A stretch of DNA of 11,630 nucleotides from a virus (lineage: Duplodnaviria > Heunggongvirae > Uroviricota > Caudoviricetes): the IMG/VR virus record IMGVR_UViG_2534681832_000020, one strand, 5' to 3'. The first letter of the stretch is position 1. Every line of letters starts with the position of its first letter. A program made the position numbers and the translations under genes. Under the pieces are notes generated by a model. The model ran no database searches. It saw only the letters and a list, made by a program, of their open reading frames with translations, and had not been told where the DNA came from. This document shows, piece by piece, positions 1 through 7,116 of the stretch.

Positions 1-130
1 ACAGATACCAGGCCTCTGCCGAAGGCTCCCGCAACACCACGCTGACATTTCCCCATTCCGGCACCTTCACCGTTTTATGACGGAACCCCGACAGTCTGGC
101 CAGCGCCAGTGTTTTCAGATCTTTTGCCAT
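1..130 (-). CDS. Tail assembly chaperone, N-terminal part only (gene continues beyond window start)
   Basis: Reverse complement of 1-130 reads ATG (130-128) then MAKDLKTLALARLSGFRHKTVKVPEWGNVSVVLREPSAEAWYL with no stop. It lies immediately downstream of the major tail gene, where lambda-like and HK97-like tail modules place the G/GT-type chaperone. Assignment rests mainly on position plus a remembered VPEWG-type motif. Confidence 0.5.
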   Translation of the reverse strand, partial: MAKDLKTLALARLSGFRHKTVKVPEWGNVSVVLREPSAEAWYL

Positions 131-135
131 AAGCC

Positions 136-852
136 TTATCCGCCCGCACCATTAACCGTTACCGTACACGCATCAGAGGTAATGCTCTGCGGCTGTTCTG
201 CAGAATCCGTTACCTCGCAGGTATAAGCCCCCTTATCACCTGACTGCGCATTGGCTTTACTGAAAGTGTCAGTAGTCTGTCCCTCTACCGGCTGACCATC
301 CTTCTTCCAGGCGTGTTTATAAGGCGGCGTTCCCCCGTTGACACTGACTGACATTGTCAGCAGCGCACCGGTATTCACGGTAAGTGTCTTCTCCGGATTT
401 TTCACAAACGCCAGCGGTACCACATAGGACACCGGTTTACCCTTCAGGCGAAGTGAAAACGTTGCAGCCACCACGCCGTTGGTACCGGATGACCAGGTGT
501 GCTGACGCACTTCCGCCAGGAACTTAAAGCCCTTACCGGACGGAAACTGCACCTTAAACGCATACACCGTGTCATTGTCATAGGCATCACGCAGGGCGTT
601 CTGGGCCTGATTCAGATAAAAATTACCCGACATGGAAATCTCGGACGACGCCCCCAGACCGTTGATGTTCTCCTGCTCTGTGGAGCAGAGCGTGGTCACA
701 TCAATATCCTGTTTCTGACCGGCGGTGAACTGGACTTCCTTGATGGTGCAGTCCAGGCGCAGATATTCCGCCTTATCCATAGTTTCAGCAGTCGCCGGGG
801 CAGATGAAATCATCACCTGCGTCAGCTGTGAGCGTTCATACAAAGCAGACAT
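136..852 (-). CDS. Major tail (tube) protein with C-terminal Ig-like domain
   Basis: 238-aa ORF with ATG at 852 preceded by AGGAGG 4 nt upstream. The central VQFPSGKGFKFLAEV region resembles lambda gpV-type tail tube proteins. The C-terminal ~80 aa (PPYKHAWKKDGQPVEGQ...GAYTCEVTD...CTVTV) has an immunoglobulin-like pattern. Confidence 0.75.
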   Translation of the reverse strand: MSALYERSQLTQVMISSAPATAETMDKAEYLRLDCTIKEVQFTAGQKQDIDVTTLCSTEQENINGLGASSEISMSGNFYLNQAQNALRDAYDNDTVYAFKVQFPSGKGFKFLAEVRQHTWSSGTNGVVAATFSLRLKGKPVSYVVPLAFVKNPEKTLTVNTGALLTMSVSVNGGTPPYKHAWKKDGQPVEGQTTDTFSKANAQSGDKGAYTCEVTDSAEQPQSITSDACTVTVNGAGG

Positions 853-865
853 TCTGCCTCCTGAT

Positions 866-890
866 AATAAAAAACCCGCACGCGGCGGGG
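866..890 (-). terminator. Terminator-like GC hairpin plus U-run immediately upstream of the major tail gene ribosome-binding site
   Basis: Minus-strand RNA reads CCCGC-cgcgu-GCGGG followed by UUUUUUAUU, then AGGAGG and the ATG at 852. The stem is only 5 bp, so any termination would be partial. Confidence 0.4.
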
Positions 891-918
891 TATGGGTTTT
901 GTAGAAAAAAAGAAAAAG

Positions 919-1263
919 TCACACCGTGACCTGAAACTCCAGGGTTGCACGGTAACAGCGGTTTTCCGGAATATAGTCCTGCATTTCACTGACGGATCCC
1001 GGGGCCAGCAGCATTATGGCTTCACGGGCGTCCTGACGTATCTGACGCGCCTGCGTCACAGTCCCGGCATAAACGTCTATCTGCACCGACACTGAGGACT
1101 CCGCCTGCCCGCCCATCACGTCCGCAGACACCGATGAAATCAGGCTGAAAACCACCCACGGAAGCGCCACCGACGGCCTGCCATCCAGCAGGGGGACCAC
1201 ATACGGGTACACCTGCCCGCCGGCAAGATGCGCCAGATGAGGATACAAATCCGCCTCCGTCAT
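919..1263 (-). CDS. Tail completion / tail terminator-like protein (DUF3168-like)
   Basis: 114-aa ORF whose ATG (1263-1261) overlaps the stop of the upstream gene as ATGA. Size and position between the gp10-like protein and the major tail protein match neck/tail-terminator genes. Family assignment is from memory, not a search. Confidence 0.5.
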   Translation of the reverse strand: MTEADLYPHLAHLAGGQVYPYVVPLLDGRPSVALPWVVFSLISSVSADVMGGQAESSVSVQIDVYAGTVTQARQIRQDAREAIMLLAPGSVSEMQDYIPENRCYRATLEFQVTV

Positions 1264-1706
1264 CGTCTCAGTACCTCATCAATGGCCCGGTTCATCCGAG
1301 CAATCGCCACCTGCGCTGCCTGTTCACTGCGCACATCAAATGCCGGGCGCACAAACGGGTGCGGTGGCATATTCACGGTCCCCATTTCCACAAACCGCCA
1401 GTAGAAAGCATTGCGCGGGTTATCCGCCTTCATGGTGTTATCGCTGTTACCGGTGTCCGGATTAACACCACGGATATGGACACCGGATTCCATCCCGCCA
1501 TCGCGGGAGCGCCGGGAAAGGACCACCACATTGCGGCGCAGTTTTCCCCTGCGTACCGGTGCCCGTGACACCACTTCTTCTTTCAGCACATTCGCACCCG
1601 CACGGGTTGCCTCACGCAGCACCCGGTTATTTTCCGCACCACTCAGAAGCTGCAAATCGCGGCTGATGTCCTCCAGCCCCGAAAAATCCAGCAGGGTTTC
1701 GATCAT
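1260..1706 (-). CDS. HK97 gp10-family neck/tail component protein
   Basis: 148-aa ORF with ATG at 1706 overlapping the upstream stop (ATGA). The AFYWRFVEMGT...PPHPFVRPAFD region matches the conserved core of HK97 gp10-family proteins. Confidence 0.65.
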   Translation of the reverse strand: MIETLLDFSGLEDISRDLQLLSGAENNRVLREATRAGANVLKEEVVSRAPVRRGKLRRNVVVLSRRSRDGGMESGVHIRGVNPDTGNSDNTMKADNPRNAFYWRFVEMGTVNMPPHPFVRPAFDVRSEQAAQVAIARMNRAIDEVLRR

Positions 1707-2053
1707 TTTTCACCTCCCAGCCGACAGAGAATTTCCAGACGTCCGCCGGTCGCATCCGGCACGGGCAGCCCGACAACGTTCAGGATCCGGTCACGCCATG
1801 GACCACTCAGCACATGAAGTCGTGACGCTGCCGTGATTTCCCGGCCGGACTGACCGCGCACCCAGATGCGGATTTCCGCCTGCGCCATTTCCGCACCGGA
1901 CTGCATCCGCTCCCGGCTGCTCCTGCCACGGATATCCGCATGAATTTTCCCGCATGACACCCATTCTTCCGTCATTTCTCCGGCAGCATTACGGGTTAAC
2001 ACCGGGTTCAGAACACTTATCATCTGTGTCAGACGACCTGCAGATATTGCCAT
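1703..2053 (-). CDS. Head closure (head-tail joining) protein
   Basis: 116-aa ORF with ATG at 2053 and GGAGGGGG ribosome-binding site. The N-terminal AGRL motif, central EIRIWVR and C-terminal RLEILCR fit the head closure / head-tail joining family of HK97-like phages. Confidence 0.75.
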   Translation of the reverse strand: MAISAGRLTQMISVLNPVLTRNAAGEMTEEWVSCGKIHADIRGRSSRERMQSGAEMAQAEIRIWVRGQSGREITAASRLHVLSGPWRDRILNVVGLPVPDATGGRLEILCRLGGEK

Positions 2054-2062
2054 TCCCCCTCC

Positions 2063-2389
2063 TCATAACACCGTCGGACAACGCAAATCGTAAATCAGCA
2101 CGGAAACAGAAAACGGCAGCTCCCCCTGAATCAGTTCTTCCCGCTCCGCAAGATCCGGATTCCGGTACAGCATCCCGGTCAGTCGCATGGCAGCCCCCTT
2201 CATCCGGGTTAATGCCTCGCCCGGGATCAGTTCACCGTCCTCACGAATCACTTTATCCCGGCTGCCCTGAATGTAGGCCAGCAGCACGGCGGTAGCCTGA
2301 CGAACCTTGTCCATCAGCATGTCATCATCCGCGTCATGGTCGACACGCAGATGTGCCTTGATCTCTTCCAGTGTCAGTAATGCCGTCAT
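2063..2389 (-). CDS. Head-tail connector (gp6-like DNA packaging / adaptor) protein
   Basis: 108-aa ORF with ATG at 2389 and AGGAGG 6 nt upstream. The N-terminal LTLEEIKAHLRVDHDADDDML motif is typical of gp6-like connector proteins. Confidence 0.75.
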   Translation of the reverse strand: MTALLTLEEIKAHLRVDHDADDDMLMDKVRQATAVLLAYIQGSRDKVIREDGELIPGEALTRMKGAAMRLTGMLYRNPDLAEREELIQGELPFSVSVLIYDLRCPTVL

Positions 2390-2468
2390 TTTCCGCCTCC
2401 TGCATCCCGTCCACGTTTGGCAGCCAGGGTCCAGCCTGATGAATGAGCTTCTCCGGGTTTATCACCGG

Positions 2469-3609
2469 TCATACTGTTGCAGTGCCACAGCGAGCCCCCC
2501 ACGTCACCGTATCGCCGGGGTGGTAGGTTTCACCGGCTCTGAACACACCGCGGTAGAGCATCACCGGCAGGGAAAATGTTTTTTCCGTACGCTGGCCACT
2601 GCTGTGCCGGATCACCACAGAGAACAACCGCTCACCCGTCATACTGACGTCAATATCCGCCACCCCGTCAACCAGGCATTCCCATCCCCGCATCCCGTGC
2701 GTTTTTTCATACGCCCGCCAGAGTCCGCCCTGGTGTGTGGCATACGTGCCCCGGGGAAAGGATTTTTGATCGTCAATGGCGGGGAGTATTTCCAGTGCCG
2801 TGGCATCACGCCCGTCCTGCGGAGCCGGCAGGGCACTCACCGCATCCAGAACCGCCTTCTGCAGAACATCCGGATCGTAGTCACGACCATCACGCGGAAC
2901 AGGAATATGGCTTACCGCCTCCTTCACCATCTGTTCAAGCATCGGACGCACATCATCCGGGGTGAGACTTTTACCGTCCGCCGGCTGCGGAATATTTGCG
3001 ACCGCATCATTCACCGCCTTCTGCAGTACTTCCGGATCGTAGTCACGACCGTCACGCGGAACAGGGATATGGCTTACCGCCTCCTTCACCATCTGTTCAA
3101 GCATCGGACGCACATCATCCGGGGTGAGACTTTTACCGTCCGCCGGTACCGGAATATTCGCAACCGCATCATTCACCGCCTGCTTCAGTACTTCCGGATC
3201 ATAATCACGACCGTCACGCGGAGCAGGGATATGGCTTACAGCCTCCTTCACCATCTGCTCAAGCATCGGACGCACATCATCCGGGGTGAGACTTTTGCCG
3301 TCCGCCGGTCTGCGGAATATTCGCGACCGCATCATTCACCGCCTGCTGCAGTACATCCGGATCATAATCACGACCATCACGCGGTACCGGAATGGTCCCC
3401 ACAGCGTCATCCACCATCGCCTGCAGAACCGGACGCACCTCATCCACCGTCACATGCTTCTGTAATACCGCCGACAGGGAAGCCAGTTTCTCTTCAAACG
3501 CTTGTGCCTGCGAGGCCATCTTCCCCTCAAATGTGCGCTGTAAATCCGCCAGCACCGTGGAGAATTCTTCTCCCAGTGCACGAATAATGGACAGTTCCCG
3601 TTCCGTCAT
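2469..3609 (-). pseudogene. Virion-module protein with ~54-aa tandem repeats, interrupted by a 1-nt insertion near 3309 (fragments 3277..3609 and 2469..3335)
   Basis: Two overlapping minus-strand ORFs in different frames carry the same repeat, IPVPRDGRDYDPEVLQKAVNDAVANIP-PADGKSLTPDDVRPMLEQMVKEAVSH. Aligning the 162-bp DNA units shows the unit at 3298 has one extra base (ccggTctgcgg versus ccggctgcgg in the unit at 2974). Removing it gives one ~379-aa ORF whose ATG (3609-3607) overlaps the portal stop as ATGA. Confidence 0.55.
2812..3460. repeat. About four tandem copies of a 162-bp (54-codon) repeat inside the repeat-protein gene
   Basis: The motif ccgtccgccgg recurs at 2974, 3136 and 3298 (period 162 bp). 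The flanking units at 2812-2973 and about 3298-3460 are more diverged; internal units are near-identical by eye. Confidence 0.8.
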
Positions 3610-4970
3610 TTTCGCAGTATCCCCCTGAACATCGCTTTCACCGCATCATGCTCTGTTTCACTGATTGCCTTATTACCGTCAGATGCGCCGTCAGGCAGTT
3701 GTGCTGAAACTGTTTTCCCGGCAGACGCGAACGGATCCTCACGGGCATCACGACGGGACAGCGCCTCCAGACTGTAGTTCTGCTGCTGAAGATACAGTGC
3801 ATCACCGCCGGCCAGGGGCGGCAGGTTCTCACGTTTACGGGCCTCATTGGGCGTGAGAAGCGTATTTTTCACCGCATCACCCAGCGTTTTCATGCGCCGT
3901 TCGCTGTCCATTCTCAGCAGCGTGGTGACGTCAAACTCCGTACTCTCGTTTTCCCCCGTTTCCAGCGCCTCATCCAGTAACAGTTCAATGGACTCAATCA
4001 GCGTCTGCAGGCACTGGGAATAATACTGCTGCTCCAGCGCCTCCACGTTGTCACTGGAAGGCGGTTGTCCCACGCCAATCTTGTAGGCCGGGACACGGAA
4101 CACCGAACAGACAATTTCAGCGGTCATCTTCAGTTGTTCCACCGTCTGCGCATCCACAGGTGAAAACGTCGTGGGGTTGTATTTTGCCCCGTTGCTCAGA
4201 ATGGCCGTTTTCCCCGCATTTTCGCCTGTATACCCGCTGTCCCAGTTGCTCTTCAGTTTTTTCGCATTTTCTTCCGTTATACTGCCGGGGATCTCAATCA
4301 CCCCGGACGGCCTGCCGCCATTTCTGAAAAAAGACGTCGAATTTTCCTGAATATGATGCCCCTGCGTGGCCGCCAGCCCGGCAGCATACACCGGCGGCAG
4401 CCCCACAAGCGGATGAAAAAAACAGTTAAACCGGTCGTGGATCACTTCCCTGGCAGGCACCGTCACCGCCTCCGTGATCCCGCAGTTCCGGTCCGGTGTA
4501 ATGCGATAGAACACCTCGCCGTCATCCGCCACCAGAGGTTCAACCCGGCTCCAGTCCAGAATACGCAGTTCTTTGATCTGCCCCCGGGAGTTACGGATTT
4601 TCAGCACCACCGTATTGCCGTGACGCAATTTGGCGTTCAGCCACAGTTCAAAAAACTGGATACGATTCTGCTGTGCATTGGGACGACGACAGAGACGGGC
4701 AATATCTCCCTGCCGCTTTTCACGGCGGATTCCCTGTGTATCAGTCTGCATCAGGCGCAGTCGCATTTTGGCGATATCCTGGGATATCAGCGAAATGCAT
4801 GAAAACACCGCATGAAAGGAGAGGACACTTTCCGGATCGGCTTTCACGCCCTGCTGCCAGGCGCCGGCAAAAGGCTCAGCCACCGCCTGAAACAGGCTGG
4901 TCCAGCCCACTTCTCTTACGTCACGTCCTGATTTCTGGTTTTTTCGGGTTCGCCGCAAAAGGTTCCACAT
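3606..4970 (-). CDS. Portal protein, HK97 family
   Basis: 454-aa ORF. The FFRNGGRPSGVIEIPG...ENAGKTAILSNGAKYNPTTFSPVDAQTVEQLKMTAEIVCSVFRVPAYKIG block matches the conserved core of HK97-family portals. ATG at 4970 has GGAG 8-9 nt upstream; start is uncertain (an in-frame GTG at 4910 is the alternative). Confidence 0.8.
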   Translation of the reverse strand: MWNLLRRTRKNQKSGRDVREVGWTSLFQAVAEPFAGAWQQGVKADPESVLSFHAVFSCISLISQDIAKMRLRLMQTDTQGIRREKRQGDIARLCRRPNAQQNRIQFFELWLNAKLRHGNTVVLKIRNSRGQIKELRILDWSRVEPLVADDGEVFYRITPDRNCGITEAVTVPAREVIHDRFNCFFHPLVGLPPVYAAGLAATQGHHIQENSTSFFRNGGRPSGVIEIPGSITEENAKKLKSNWDSGYTGENAGKTAILSNGAKYNPTTFSPVDAQTVEQLKMTAEIVCSVFRVPAYKIGVGQPPSSDNVEALEQQYYSQCLQTLIESIELLLDEALETGENESTEFDVTTLLRMDSERRMKTLGDAVKNTLLTPNEARKRENLPPLAGGDALYLQQQNYSLEALSRRDAREDPFASAGKTVSAQLPDGASDGNKAISETEHDAVKAMFRGILRK

Positions 4971-5137
4971 TCGCCATGCTCCGCATCACGTTTCTTTTTC
5001 TGACCTGCCGGACGTCGCGCTGTGATGTACTCCGCCTTCCCCAGGCGAACCAGCACCTCCGCACACGGCTGTGCCACATCACGGATATCCCCGGCCCGGG
5101 CATCATGCGTGCCCTGCAGATATCGGATCTTTGCCAT
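4916..5137 (-). CDS. Hypothetical small protein (73 aa) in the capsid-portal gap; doubtful
   Basis: ATG at 5137 opens MAKIRYLQGTHDARAGDIRDVAQPCAEVLVRLGKAEY..., which fills the otherwise noncoding 208-bp gap. There is no clear Shine-Dalgarno sequence, the start sits 7 nt after a strong hairpin, and the 3' end overlaps the annotated portal start by 55 nt in another frame. Confidence 0.25.
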   Translation of the reverse strand: MAKIRYLQGTHDARAGDIRDVAQPCAEVLVRLGKAEYITARRPAGQKKKRDAEHGECGTFCGEPEKTRNQDVT

Positions 5138-5178: not shown

Positions 5179-7116
5179 TCAGCCGCCGGACGCACTGCCG
5201 TAGTTCACTCCGGTGATCACCGCCACCGCCGCGGTACGGCGACGACGCCAGTTGATCCAGCGCTCCGCACGGATGGCCACGCTGCCTGTCTGGAACATGG
5301 AAACCAGCTCCACCGGGGACGGCGTGGTACTGTCGCCGGTCGGCTCAGACTGCATTTCCAGTGATGCTTCACGGGACATATCCACTGCCACGCCGCCGTC
5401 ATCCGCCAGATAAATATCCGGCGCATTCACCAGCACCAGCTGGTCACCCACGTACTGGGAGACAATCACCGGCAGGCCCTGGAAGGAGCCACCCAGCAGG
5501 GTCATGTCCGGGTATTCCTTCTGACCCAGCGCATTTTTACGCATGGACAGTGCCAGGGCATTGGTGCTGGACATCAGCCAGACAGCACCAGTGGGCTGCA
5601 GATTTGCCGTCACAAACTGGCCAAACGCGGCCTCGGCATCCGCATCCGGGTTACCGGTTGATGCCGTGCCCTTCACATCATGGGTGATGGACGCCGGGGA
5701 GACATCTGCCACTGCGGCTTTTTTCGGGTCCACAAAGTCTGTATCCAGACGCGCCACTACCGCTTCCGCCAGCGCATTACGGACCAGTGCATCAGCAGCC
5801 GGACTGGAAAAACGGATCAATTCTTCCGTCAGTACCGCAATGGCCGACACTTTCGCATGACTGAAGGTGATGGATTCAAAATCAAACTTCGTCAGGGGTC
5901 TGGCCTTACCCTCACCCACCCAGCCGGCAGCACCGCCGGACACCTGGGCGTGCACACGGATATTGAACGGCACCTGACGAAGTGCAGGGATCCCGCCCTG
6001 ACCAAATCGCCCGATAATGGTCTGCGGACGCAGGTAATCAATAAAGTCCTGTGCGTATTCCTGATATTCAGACAGGCTGCCTGCCCACTGCGGATCCGTG
6101 GTGGTCCCCGCGCCCACTGCCGATTTCAGGACATGATGCAGACAACTGTCATCCGGATACTGACGACGGGCCACTTCCAGGGCTTCAGATCGGACGCCTT
6201 TAGCCGCAGCCAGCGATTTGGCAAAGCGGGCGAAGCCAATCCCCTTATCCAGTTTCTGCTCCACACGGATCACCGGCGCAGAAGCCACCGCGGCCACATT
6301 CCCGTTACCGGCCTGTTTCACCGGCTGCGCCGTGGCGGCCTTACCGGCTTCCAGTTCACGCAGGCGCTTCAGGTGCGCATCCACCTGACGGATTTCCGCT
6401 GCGGTGTTGTCGTAGTGCTCTTCCTCCTCCACATCCAGCGTGCGCCCTTCCTCTGCGGCTTTGGTCATGACCTCCTCAAGGGAGGCTGCCAGCGCTGCAC
6501 GCTTGTTTTCAAAACTTTTAATCTGTTCGCCAATATTCATTATGGTCTTTTCCTTATGAAAAACGGTTGTTGACTGTGCCGCAGCGCCGGCAGAAGATGC
6601 GATTTTCACCACCGGTTTCCGGTTGCCGGACGCGGCAGAAAACGGGCGGTCGTAAGATTTAATGGTCCGGATGGTGCATTCCGCATTCGCGGGCACGGTG
6701 ACGGCAGACACCTCCATCAGTTCCCAGCGCAGAAAATGCAGTCCGCCTCCGTCCAGAAAGGTGTATTCATGGGGACGGAAGCCCACGGACAGCCCCCTGA
6801 CCAGCCCGGTCTTAATGGCCGCCCAGACCTCATCCAGCCGGGCTGCCATCTGGGAGGGCATCCCCGGCTCCGGCTTCACCAGCATTGCCGTGATTTCCAG
6901 CCCTTCCCTGACCCGACGCACCGTACACTGGCCTACAGGGCGGGAATGGTCATGCTGCCAGAGAAACGGGATCGCACTGCCAAACTCCGCGCCCTCCGGC
7001 TCCAGGATGTCACCATCCCGATCCGGAGAAGGCGTTGACGCAATCCCGGTGATCACCCGTTCATCCTCACTGAAGGATTTCACCGTCAGCAGGGAACAGG
7101 CCCGTTTAAGAGTCAC
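5179..7116 (-). CDS. Fused prohead protease - scaffold-like coiled coil - major capsid protein (HK97 family)
   Basis: 645-aa ORF starting at GTG 7116 with AGGAGG 5 nt upstream. The N-terminus (ITGIASTPSPDRDGDILEPEGAEF...GLSVGFRP...VTVPAN) matches HK97-type prohead proteases. The middle (EQIKSFENKRAALAASLEEV...LKRLRELEAG) is a charged, coiled-coil-like stretch. The C-terminal ~400 aa matches HK97-fold major capsid proteins. Confidence 0.85.
   Translation of the reverse strand: MTLKRACSLLTVKSFSEDERVITGIASTPSPDRDGDILEPEGAEFGSAIPFLWQHDHSRPVGQCTVRRVREGLEITAMLVKPEPGMPSQMAARLDEVWAAIKTGLVRGLSVGFRPHEYTFLDGGGLHFLRWELMEVSAVTVPANAECTIRTIKSYDRPFSAASGNRKPVVKIASSAGAAAQSTTVFHKEKTIMNIGEQIKSFENKRAALAASLEEVMTKAAEEGRTLDVEEEEHYDNTAAEIRQVDAHLKRLRELEAGKAATAQPVKQAGNGNVAAVASAPVIRVEQKLDKGIGFARFAKSLAAAKGVRSEALEVARRQYPDDSCLHHVLKSAVGAGTTTDPQWAGSLSEYQEYAQDFIDYLRPQTIIGRFGQGGIPALRQVPFNIRVHAQVSGGAAGWVGEGKARPLTKFDFESITFSHAKVSAIAVLTEELIRFSSPAADALVRNALAEAVVARLDTDFVDPKKAAVADVSPASITHDVKGTASTGNPDADAEAAFGQFVTANLQPTGAVWLMSSTNALALSMRKNALGQKEYPDMTLLGGSFQGLPVIVSQYVGDQLVLVNAPDIYLADDGGVAVDMSREASLEMQSEPTGDSTTPSPVELVSMFQTGSVAIRAERWINWRRRRTAAVAVITGVNYGSASGG

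Follow-up and report, generated by a model that had tools for sequence, protein, structure and literature searches.

The window, as the stretch of DNA analysed here is called, spans the full length (11,630 bp) of contig AIGF01000087.1, which belongs to the draft assembly GCA_000249795.2 of Escherichia coli DEC8A, a strain of the O111 enterohaemorrhagic lineage. It contains the head-tail module of a lambdoid prophage. All genes of the window are encoded on the minus strand. Between the portal gene and the head-tail connector gene lies a gene that we term X, the reading frame of which is interrupted in this copy. At a probability of roughly 0.72, positions 2386-3609 (minus strand) represent a decayed, twice-disrupted copy of a genuine stand-alone prophage gene, the product of which would be an accessory fibre of the portal or neck. 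The features at and around X are:

2386-3609, minus strand: gene X, a pseudogene in the window as judged from its restored translation; intact stand-alone orthologues exist elsewhere
3277-3609, minus strand: N-terminal fragment, an open reading frame (ORF) of 110 amino acids (aa) with ATG start (EHV99939.1, ECDEC8A_5965)
2469-3335, minus strand: open frame without a genuine start, covering the remaining repeats and most of the C-terminal domain, with the premature end ...TVTWGARCGTATV before the stop codon
2851-3384, minus strand: tandem repeats of 162 nucleotides (nt; 54 aa), 3.3 copies with 93% matches (Tandem Repeats Finder)
2386-2816, minus strand: conserved beta-rich C-terminal domain of about 135 aa when restored, with a core from about 2525 that resembles carbohydrate-binding modules (CBM) of the CBM5/12 type
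3309: extra T (read as A in the coding strand) that shifts the frame by +1, is confined to this contig and changes GCAGCC to GCAGACC at a repeat-unit junction
2495-2500: site C, a C6 run (G6 on the coding strand) that is C7 in intact copies, giving a -1 frameshift in the alignment to intact relatives
3621-3625: site A, a C5 run (G5 on the coding strand) that is C6 in an 859-aa fusion reference; by alignment a natural split allele and not a lesion

Architecture of gene X

The initial annotation had described the 110-aa ORF and the start-less ORF as parts of a separate gene between portal and connector. Both ORFs are present, and a separate gene in this position is the normal arrangement in functional relatives. 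From its N-terminus, the product of the 110-aa ORF comprises a long predicted helix, the initial repeat half-units and ten out-of-frame residues (TGGRQKSHPG) before the stop codon. The 54-aa tandem repeats noted earlier are likewise real. Each unit divides into a 25-aa and a 29-aa half-unit, which are related and alternate at the protein level (PRDGRDYDP... and PADGKSLTPDD...), and X contains seven half-units in total. Removal of the T at 3309 alone yields a product of 379 aa, which had been proposed as the restored protein. This product still ends prematurely with ...TVTWGARCGTATV, whereas removal of the T together with restoration of one C at 2495-2500 gives a protein of 407 aa that ends with ...GGSLWHCNSMTGDKPGEAHSSGWTLAAKRGRDAGGGK and extends the gene to 2386-3609. 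Intact copies of X end with ...TVTWGGSLWHCNSMTGDKPGEAHSSGWTLAAKRGRDAGGGK. The C-terminal domain is indeed distinct, as had been suggested, but its size is not the assumed 110 aa.

Intact X begins with a long helix, continues with 54-aa repeats in variable number and closes with a beta domain of about 135 aa that has a CBM5/12-type end. In related loci, X has a length of 245, 299, 353, 407, 461 or 569 aa, differing by multiples of 54 aa, with 1 to 7 repeat units.

A shared frameshift in the C-terminal module

The initial annotation recognized a single break in the gene, the insertion at 3309. This insertion was confirmed, but it is not the only lesion, as a second frameshift is located at site C. 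The C-terminal 36 residues of X, within the CBM5/12-like module, are lost as a result, and they include S373, W375, T381, K384, P385, W393, L395, K398, G400, R401 and D402, which are invariant in a 20-sequence alignment from multiple genera. The exact 79-mer of the window across site C occurs in at least 61 complete-genome records, among them the finished, Sanger-era sequence NC_013364.1 (O111:H- 11128). With the prophage in this genome, window positions 1-3281 share 99.15% identity with zero gaps, and the 420-nt C-terminal segment of X differs at a single site. The lesion at site C is a real heritable allele that is present in independent finished sequences. Contraction of the run from G7 to G6 was found on at least three different sequence backgrounds, indicating that site C is a slippage hot spot. 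The lesion is real and was inherited, and it very probably inactivates the C-terminal module. The contraction was passed on with this prophage lineage and takes out the core of the carbohydrate-binding module. Because finished genomes share it, the tip of the X product would be non-functional regardless of whether the base at 3309 is real.

The extra base at position 3309

The single extra base lies outside any homopolymer, as stated in the initial annotation. Alignment to intact relatives, including the closest phage records with 97.5% identity, shows the plus-strand context CCGG[T]CTGCGG. This private +1 insertion lies within the first repeat junction of X. A 79-mer across 3309 had no match in complete E. 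coli genomes (best match 94.9% and gapped), and a 22-mer containing the extra T gave 0 exact matches in IMG/VR and the GTDB representative genomes; the 22-mer without the T was found in 58 IMG/VR stretches. Among 153 billion gene positions, this contig is the only one with the 110-aa product, and exact-protein look-ups for an independent assembly of the same strain returned just the GenBank contig. No homologues with the same two-ORF arrangement were found.

The heptamer GCAGACC corresponds to the prefix of GCAGCC (Q type, ...IPQPA...) joined to the suffix of GGTACC (V type, ...IPVPA...), and both variants occur within this gene. In a collection of about 15 billion proteins, the large terminase (TerL), capsid and portal proteins of the contig occur once each, and its seven short neighbouring proteins are found on 894 to at least 1000 contigs each. 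The best identity of the region to complete genomes is 97.8-98.4%; matches occupy 10,607 places in 1,247 complete genomes. These observations on the base and its contig fit a collapsed consensus of prophage copies and equally a private mosaic with a private mutation.

Split and fused alleles at the junction of portal and X

The panel examined comprised 80 loci of IMG/VR together with loci of complete genomes and phages, and 88 loci were typed at the junction. In the window, the TGA stop codon of the portal gene overlaps the ATG of X as ATGA, an overlap of 4 nt. The G5 run at site A has a Shine-Dalgarno-like context (AGGGGGA) 11 nt upstream of the start of X. With one more G at this site, portal and X form one continuous ORF, that of the 859-aa 'portal protein' in phage 2851, with the junction peptide ...AMFRGDTEKMTERE...; in phages 2851 (FM180578) and Stx2a_WGPS6 (NC_049945), it covers a region that holds three ORFs in the window. 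The junction run was G5 in 44/88 panel loci and G6 in 44/88. Every G5 locus has a portal ORF of 454 or 455 aa, the TGA of which overlaps the ATG of X, and at most of these loci X is intact. A small number of G5 alleles match G6 alleles at all of 550 flanking bases, indicating recent toggling between the two forms. Diversity is much greater among G5 than among G6 alleles, which argues for the fusion as the derived state. The junction has no G run in Salmonella (AGAGGA), Klebsiella (CGAGGA) and Variovorax. Judged from these alleles, the fused 859-aa 'portal protein' is a derived allele generated by one extra G, and split portal and X genes are the ancestral and widespread form. Among the related loci L007-L089, the copy number of the 162-nt repeat varies, and the fused portal-X forms range from 807 to 1023 aa.

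The match to the portal family PF04860 (profile positions 2-321 of 321) falls wholly within the upstream 454-aa ORF. X itself (P0109) has no match to the portal domain (PF04860 / TIGR01537), which was detected in one of 46 family members, a fusion. The NCBI Prokaryotic Genome Annotation Pipeline (PGAP) flags the split G5 copies as 'frameshifted' portal pseudogenes, and these flags are annotation artefacts. An independent fusion of portal and X was observed in a distant lineage: P0259 (1237 aa) has a portal N-terminus and is 37% identical to X. P0292-P0344 from Klebsiella, Enterobacter, Cronobacter and Pantoea are stand-alone homologues of X without a portal domain, which NCBI names 'phage portal protein', 'phage gp6-like head-tail connector protein' or 'Carbohydrate binding domain'. 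It looks as if these names were propagated from the E. coli fusion.

Relatives of X in phages and prophages

Intact, stand-alone copies of X are present in BP-4795 (ORF59), in FSL SP-016 (SP016_00155) and in Klebsiella and Variovorax prophages. In the inducible Stx1 phage BP-4795, ORF59 accompanies the portal gene ORF58, and the isolated Salmonella phage FSL SP-016 encodes a 451-aa portal and a 347-aa ORF with the same 4-nt overlap. The Klebsiella and Variovorax prophages have the order portal, X and a connector of 108 aa. Near-identical partial 'portal' fragments from E. coli filled the initial list of homologues; other genera were reached by representative and profile searches. Among 1.84 billion cluster representatives, 5403 homologues were detected at E <= 1e-3, nearly all of them stand-alone proteins of 250-700 aa. 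We found nothing specific in the literature on a characterized homologue, on virion proteomics of this head type or on a structure of X.

Predicted fold of the C-terminal domain

AlphaFold2 with a 20-sequence alignment predicted an N-terminal helix (residues 3-50) and a beta-rich C-terminal domain with a predicted local distance difference test score (pLDDT) of 78-91 over residues ~272-400. A single-sequence model was discarded (mean pLDDT 41). Sequence and structure comparison both support a CBM5/12 fold for the last ~50 aa of the C-terminal domain, and the modelled tip is a small beta fold with conserved surface aromatic residues. The chitin-binding family PF02839 matches 33 of 46 homologues at E <= 0.01 (best 1.1e-7). 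Some homologues end in collagen-like GKDGxDG tails. Other candidate matches were set aside: sequence searches against the PDB returned designed helical repeat proteins at E ~0.01, which are uninformative, and TetR_C_35, DUF4244 and further Pfam matches were below cut-offs and represent repeat noise, as does 'QatB (faint)' on a 265-aa fragment.

Selection and decay

Among intact alleles of X, the ratio of nonsynonymous to synonymous polymorphism (pN/pS) is 0.19 in the C-terminal domain and 0.39 in the N-terminus; the value for the portal is 0.135. The pN/pS of 0.19 indicates that intact X is under purifying selection. At the same time, X is broken in 13 of 72 complete copies, and the adjacent portal domain of similar length in 0 of 86. 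The lesions comprise contraction of the G run, another hot spot, a nonsense codon, deletions outside homopolymers and out-of-register changes of the repeats; per-lesion alignment of other broken X copies covered two loci. The second recurrent hot spot, a single-base deletion at column 220 of the 420-nt segment and ~85 nt upstream of site C, is found in L088 and L079 on two different backgrounds. Frameshift flags are also attached to neighbouring genes in complete genomes, namely to the major capsid gene in L003 (O111:H8 strain 8E) and to tail completion gp17 in L088 (O157:H7 PV15-279), pointing to general decay of these prophage modules. The frequent breakage of X suggests that it is dispensable for propagation, or simply more mutable via its repeats and G runs.

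Genomic surroundings of X in the window

The nine other genes of the window are all full length, and the ATG of the connector gene overlaps the stop codon of intact X. The neighbouring features are:

8838-9401, minus strand: small terminase
7180-8841, minus strand: large terminase (TerL)
5179-7116, minus strand: S78 protease-major capsid fusion
4916-5137, minus strand: 73-aa ORF
3606-4970, minus strand: portal, 454 aa; the PF04860 match spans the whole model
2063-2389, minus strand: Ad1 head-tail connector (PF05135)
1703-2053, minus strand: head closure protein
1260-1706, minus strand: HK97 gp10-like protein
919-1263, minus strand: tail completion gp17
136-852, minus strand: major tail protein

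At 5179-7116, an S78 prohead protease and a major capsid protein of the HK97 type are joined in a single ORF of 645 aa; L091, the Variovorax relative, has a separate gene for each. The order TerL, protease-capsid, 73-aa ORF and portal is unusual in that the portal follows the capsid gene. The sole G/C homopolymer of the window that is longer than the C6 run at 2495-2500 is a C7 run at 9675-9681, inside an ORF in the 9517-9984 region.

Discussion

We propose that X encodes an accessory virion protein at the portal or neck that would be fibre- or tether-like and putatively binds glycans. The synteny of portal, X and Ad1 connector across genera, the variation between 1 and 7 repeat units and the CBM5/12-like tip are consistent with a head or neck fibre. 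Recurrent fusion to the C-terminus of the portal, in the G6 alleles of E. coli and in P0259, suggests a position close to the portal for the N-terminus of X. X might be placed either on the portal crown within the capsid, as is SPP1 gp7, or externally as a neck fibre. A decoration or fibre-like role had been proposed before and is plausible from a helical N-terminus, repeats of variable length and a CBM5/12-like tip, although it is unproven. Phage propagation would spare X more easily than the portal, which would account for the frequent breakage of X at slippage-prone runs and repeats in resident prophages. The decay of X is ordinary prophage decay, in a member of a common but uncharacterized prophage gene family.

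Several observations weigh against this interpretation. The virion location and the glycan binding of X are putative, the repeat region was modelled as helix-loop units with low confidence (pLDDT below 50), and the PF02839 match of E. coli X (P0109) reaches 20.0 bits (E 7e-4), which is below the Pfam cut-off of 26.2. Truncated X might retain partial function. The uniqueness of the TerL, capsid and portal proteins and the lack of a complete-genome match above 97.8-98.4% also count here, as the assembly may have merged several prophage copies into this contig, which would then not be one real locus, and the insertion at 3309 itself is uncertain.

The initial annotation left pseudogenisation, an assembly or sequencing error and recoding as options for the broken gene. 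Pseudogenisation is now best supported, owing to the second, independent frameshift, and an artefact is a live explanation for the base at 3309 itself. For this base, we give even odds to a genuine mutation private to this copy, a second hit that would have struck X when the inherited contraction from G7 to G6 had already inactivated it. The lesion at site C is common to finished genomes of the same lineage, L088 also carries two lesions in X, and L032 has two single-base deletions outside homopolymers, yet the insertion was seen in no second sequence. This uniqueness, together with the exact match of the junction to the beginning of one natural variant and the end of the other, would fit a collapse of the many near-identical lambdoid prophages of DEC8A, in which Q- and V-type junctions were mixed into the 7-nt chimera GCAGACC. 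Such an assembly or consensus artefact, to which we assign a chance a little short of one half, would be in line with the window being a whole short contig of a draft assembly, with three long singleton proteins beside short ones found on many contigs, and with a best complete-genome identity of just 97.8%, though related genomes hold up to 28 places each. It is less easily reconciled with a base outside a homopolymer, with the absence of frame errors from the nine other genes and with the genuine nature of the two other length differences (3621-3625 and 2495-2500), which proved to be natural alleles; moreover, broken copies of X are common in finished genomes, so that a real second hit would be unremarkable. 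In principle, a full-length product could be restored by programmed +1 frameshifting at 3309, alone or combined with slippage at the G run, given that G runs can support low-level ribosomal or transcriptional slippage and that both reading arrangements at the portal-X junction occur in nature through G5/G6 toggling. Two independent events, at 3309 and at site C, would however be required, the CAG-ACC-GGC context read from the sequence contains no known +1 shifty motif or rare codon, and the insertion occurs in 0 of 72 complete X copies of the panel and in 0 of the IMG/VR or complete-genome matches examined. The Salmonella, Klebsiella and Variovorax relatives also have no slippery run at the junction. 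As neither lesion nor motif is conserved among homologues, programmed frameshifting was rejected and its probability is close to negligible.

According to the naming in RefSeq and PHROG, X would be the C-terminal half of the portal protein, and the window would contain a portal gene destroyed by three frameshifts. The annotation of the 859-aa fused ORF in phage 2851, in Stx2a_WGPS6 and by PGAP, the 859-position profile phrog_2271 and the marking of split copies as 'frameshifted' by PGAP speak for this assignment. We nevertheless regard it as very unlikely, because PF04860 is complete inside the 454-aa ORF, the split form with ATGA overlap and intact X is found in 44 of 88 panel loci and additionally in isolated phages of other genera, the greater diversity of G5 alleles points to a derived fusion, and homologues are overwhelmingly stand-alone. 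Destruction of a portal gene by three frameshifts was rejected, since the split allele is both ancestral and widespread. A more speculative and rather improbable idea is that the short G runs act as heritable slippage switches, with G5/G6 toggling between free X and a portal extension and G7/G6 dropping the putative glycan-binding tip. If so, a prophage population would make virions with alternative states of a portal-associated fibre, a phase-variable accessory structure, and X would be the founding member of a large uncharacterized family of portal-associated carbohydrate-binding proteins.

In itself, the disrupted gene in the window is a routine feature: the strain has many lambdoid prophages, and an accessory gene of one of them is frameshifted on a draft contig. 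The wider relevance of X as a decayed stand-alone gene concerns annotation, because RefSeq, PGAP and PHROG take the derived 859-aa fusion as reference portal and a common two-gene arrangement is consequently mislabelled as 'frameshifted'. The names 'portal protein' and 'gp6-like connector' have thereby spread to stand-alone homologues without a portal domain. The X family is large, with its 5403 representative clusters reaching from Enterobacteriaceae to Variovorax, and combines a conserved position with a length-variable stalk and a CBM5/12-like tip. The excess of breakage over the portal marks X as a dispensable or conditionally useful virion component, with a candidate role in adhesion in relatives of Stx phages.

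Minor head proteins of the SPP1 gp7 and Mu gpF type are encoded right after the portal gene, sometimes as fusions, and their products are portal-associated. The similarity of X to these proteins is a positional analogy, and no sequence or Pfam relationship was detected. The fibres of the Agrobacterium phages 7-7-1 and Milano and collagen/ChiC_BD proteins in BFVD resemble X in having an elongated repetitive stalk and a small distal carbohydrate-binding domain. The matches of X to phage fibres are weak (Foldseek E ~1e-3 against the PDB), and X is encoded in the head-neck module and not among tail-fibre genes. The chitin-binding modules of the CBM5/12 type (PF02839), such as those of Streptomyces ChiC (ChBD, 2d49) and Serratia ChiB, are located on enzymes, whereas the module in X caps a phage repeat protein and is truncated in the window copy, unlike those of ChiC and ChiB. 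The 859-aa 'portal protein' of 2851 and Stx2a_WGPS6 (phrog_2271; RefSeq WP_423742773.1) is encoded by the same DNA at 97.5% identity, and its residues 455-859 correspond to X; this fusion carries G6 at the junction and belongs to a derived clade with occasional toggling, in contrast to the split G5 allele of the window. The closest counterparts are BP-4795 ORF59 (CAD88860.1, 461 aa) and SP016_00155 of FSL SP-016 (347 aa), the C-terminal domains of which are 97.7% and 65.6% identical to X, respectively. Both are annotated just as hypothetical proteins. Like X, they follow a portal of ~450 aa with a 4-nt overlap, precede an Ad1 connector and are composed of an N-terminal helix, repeats and the C-terminal domain. 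They differ from the window copy in the number of repeats and in being intact, as X in the window carries the insertion at 3309 and the contraction from G7 to G6.

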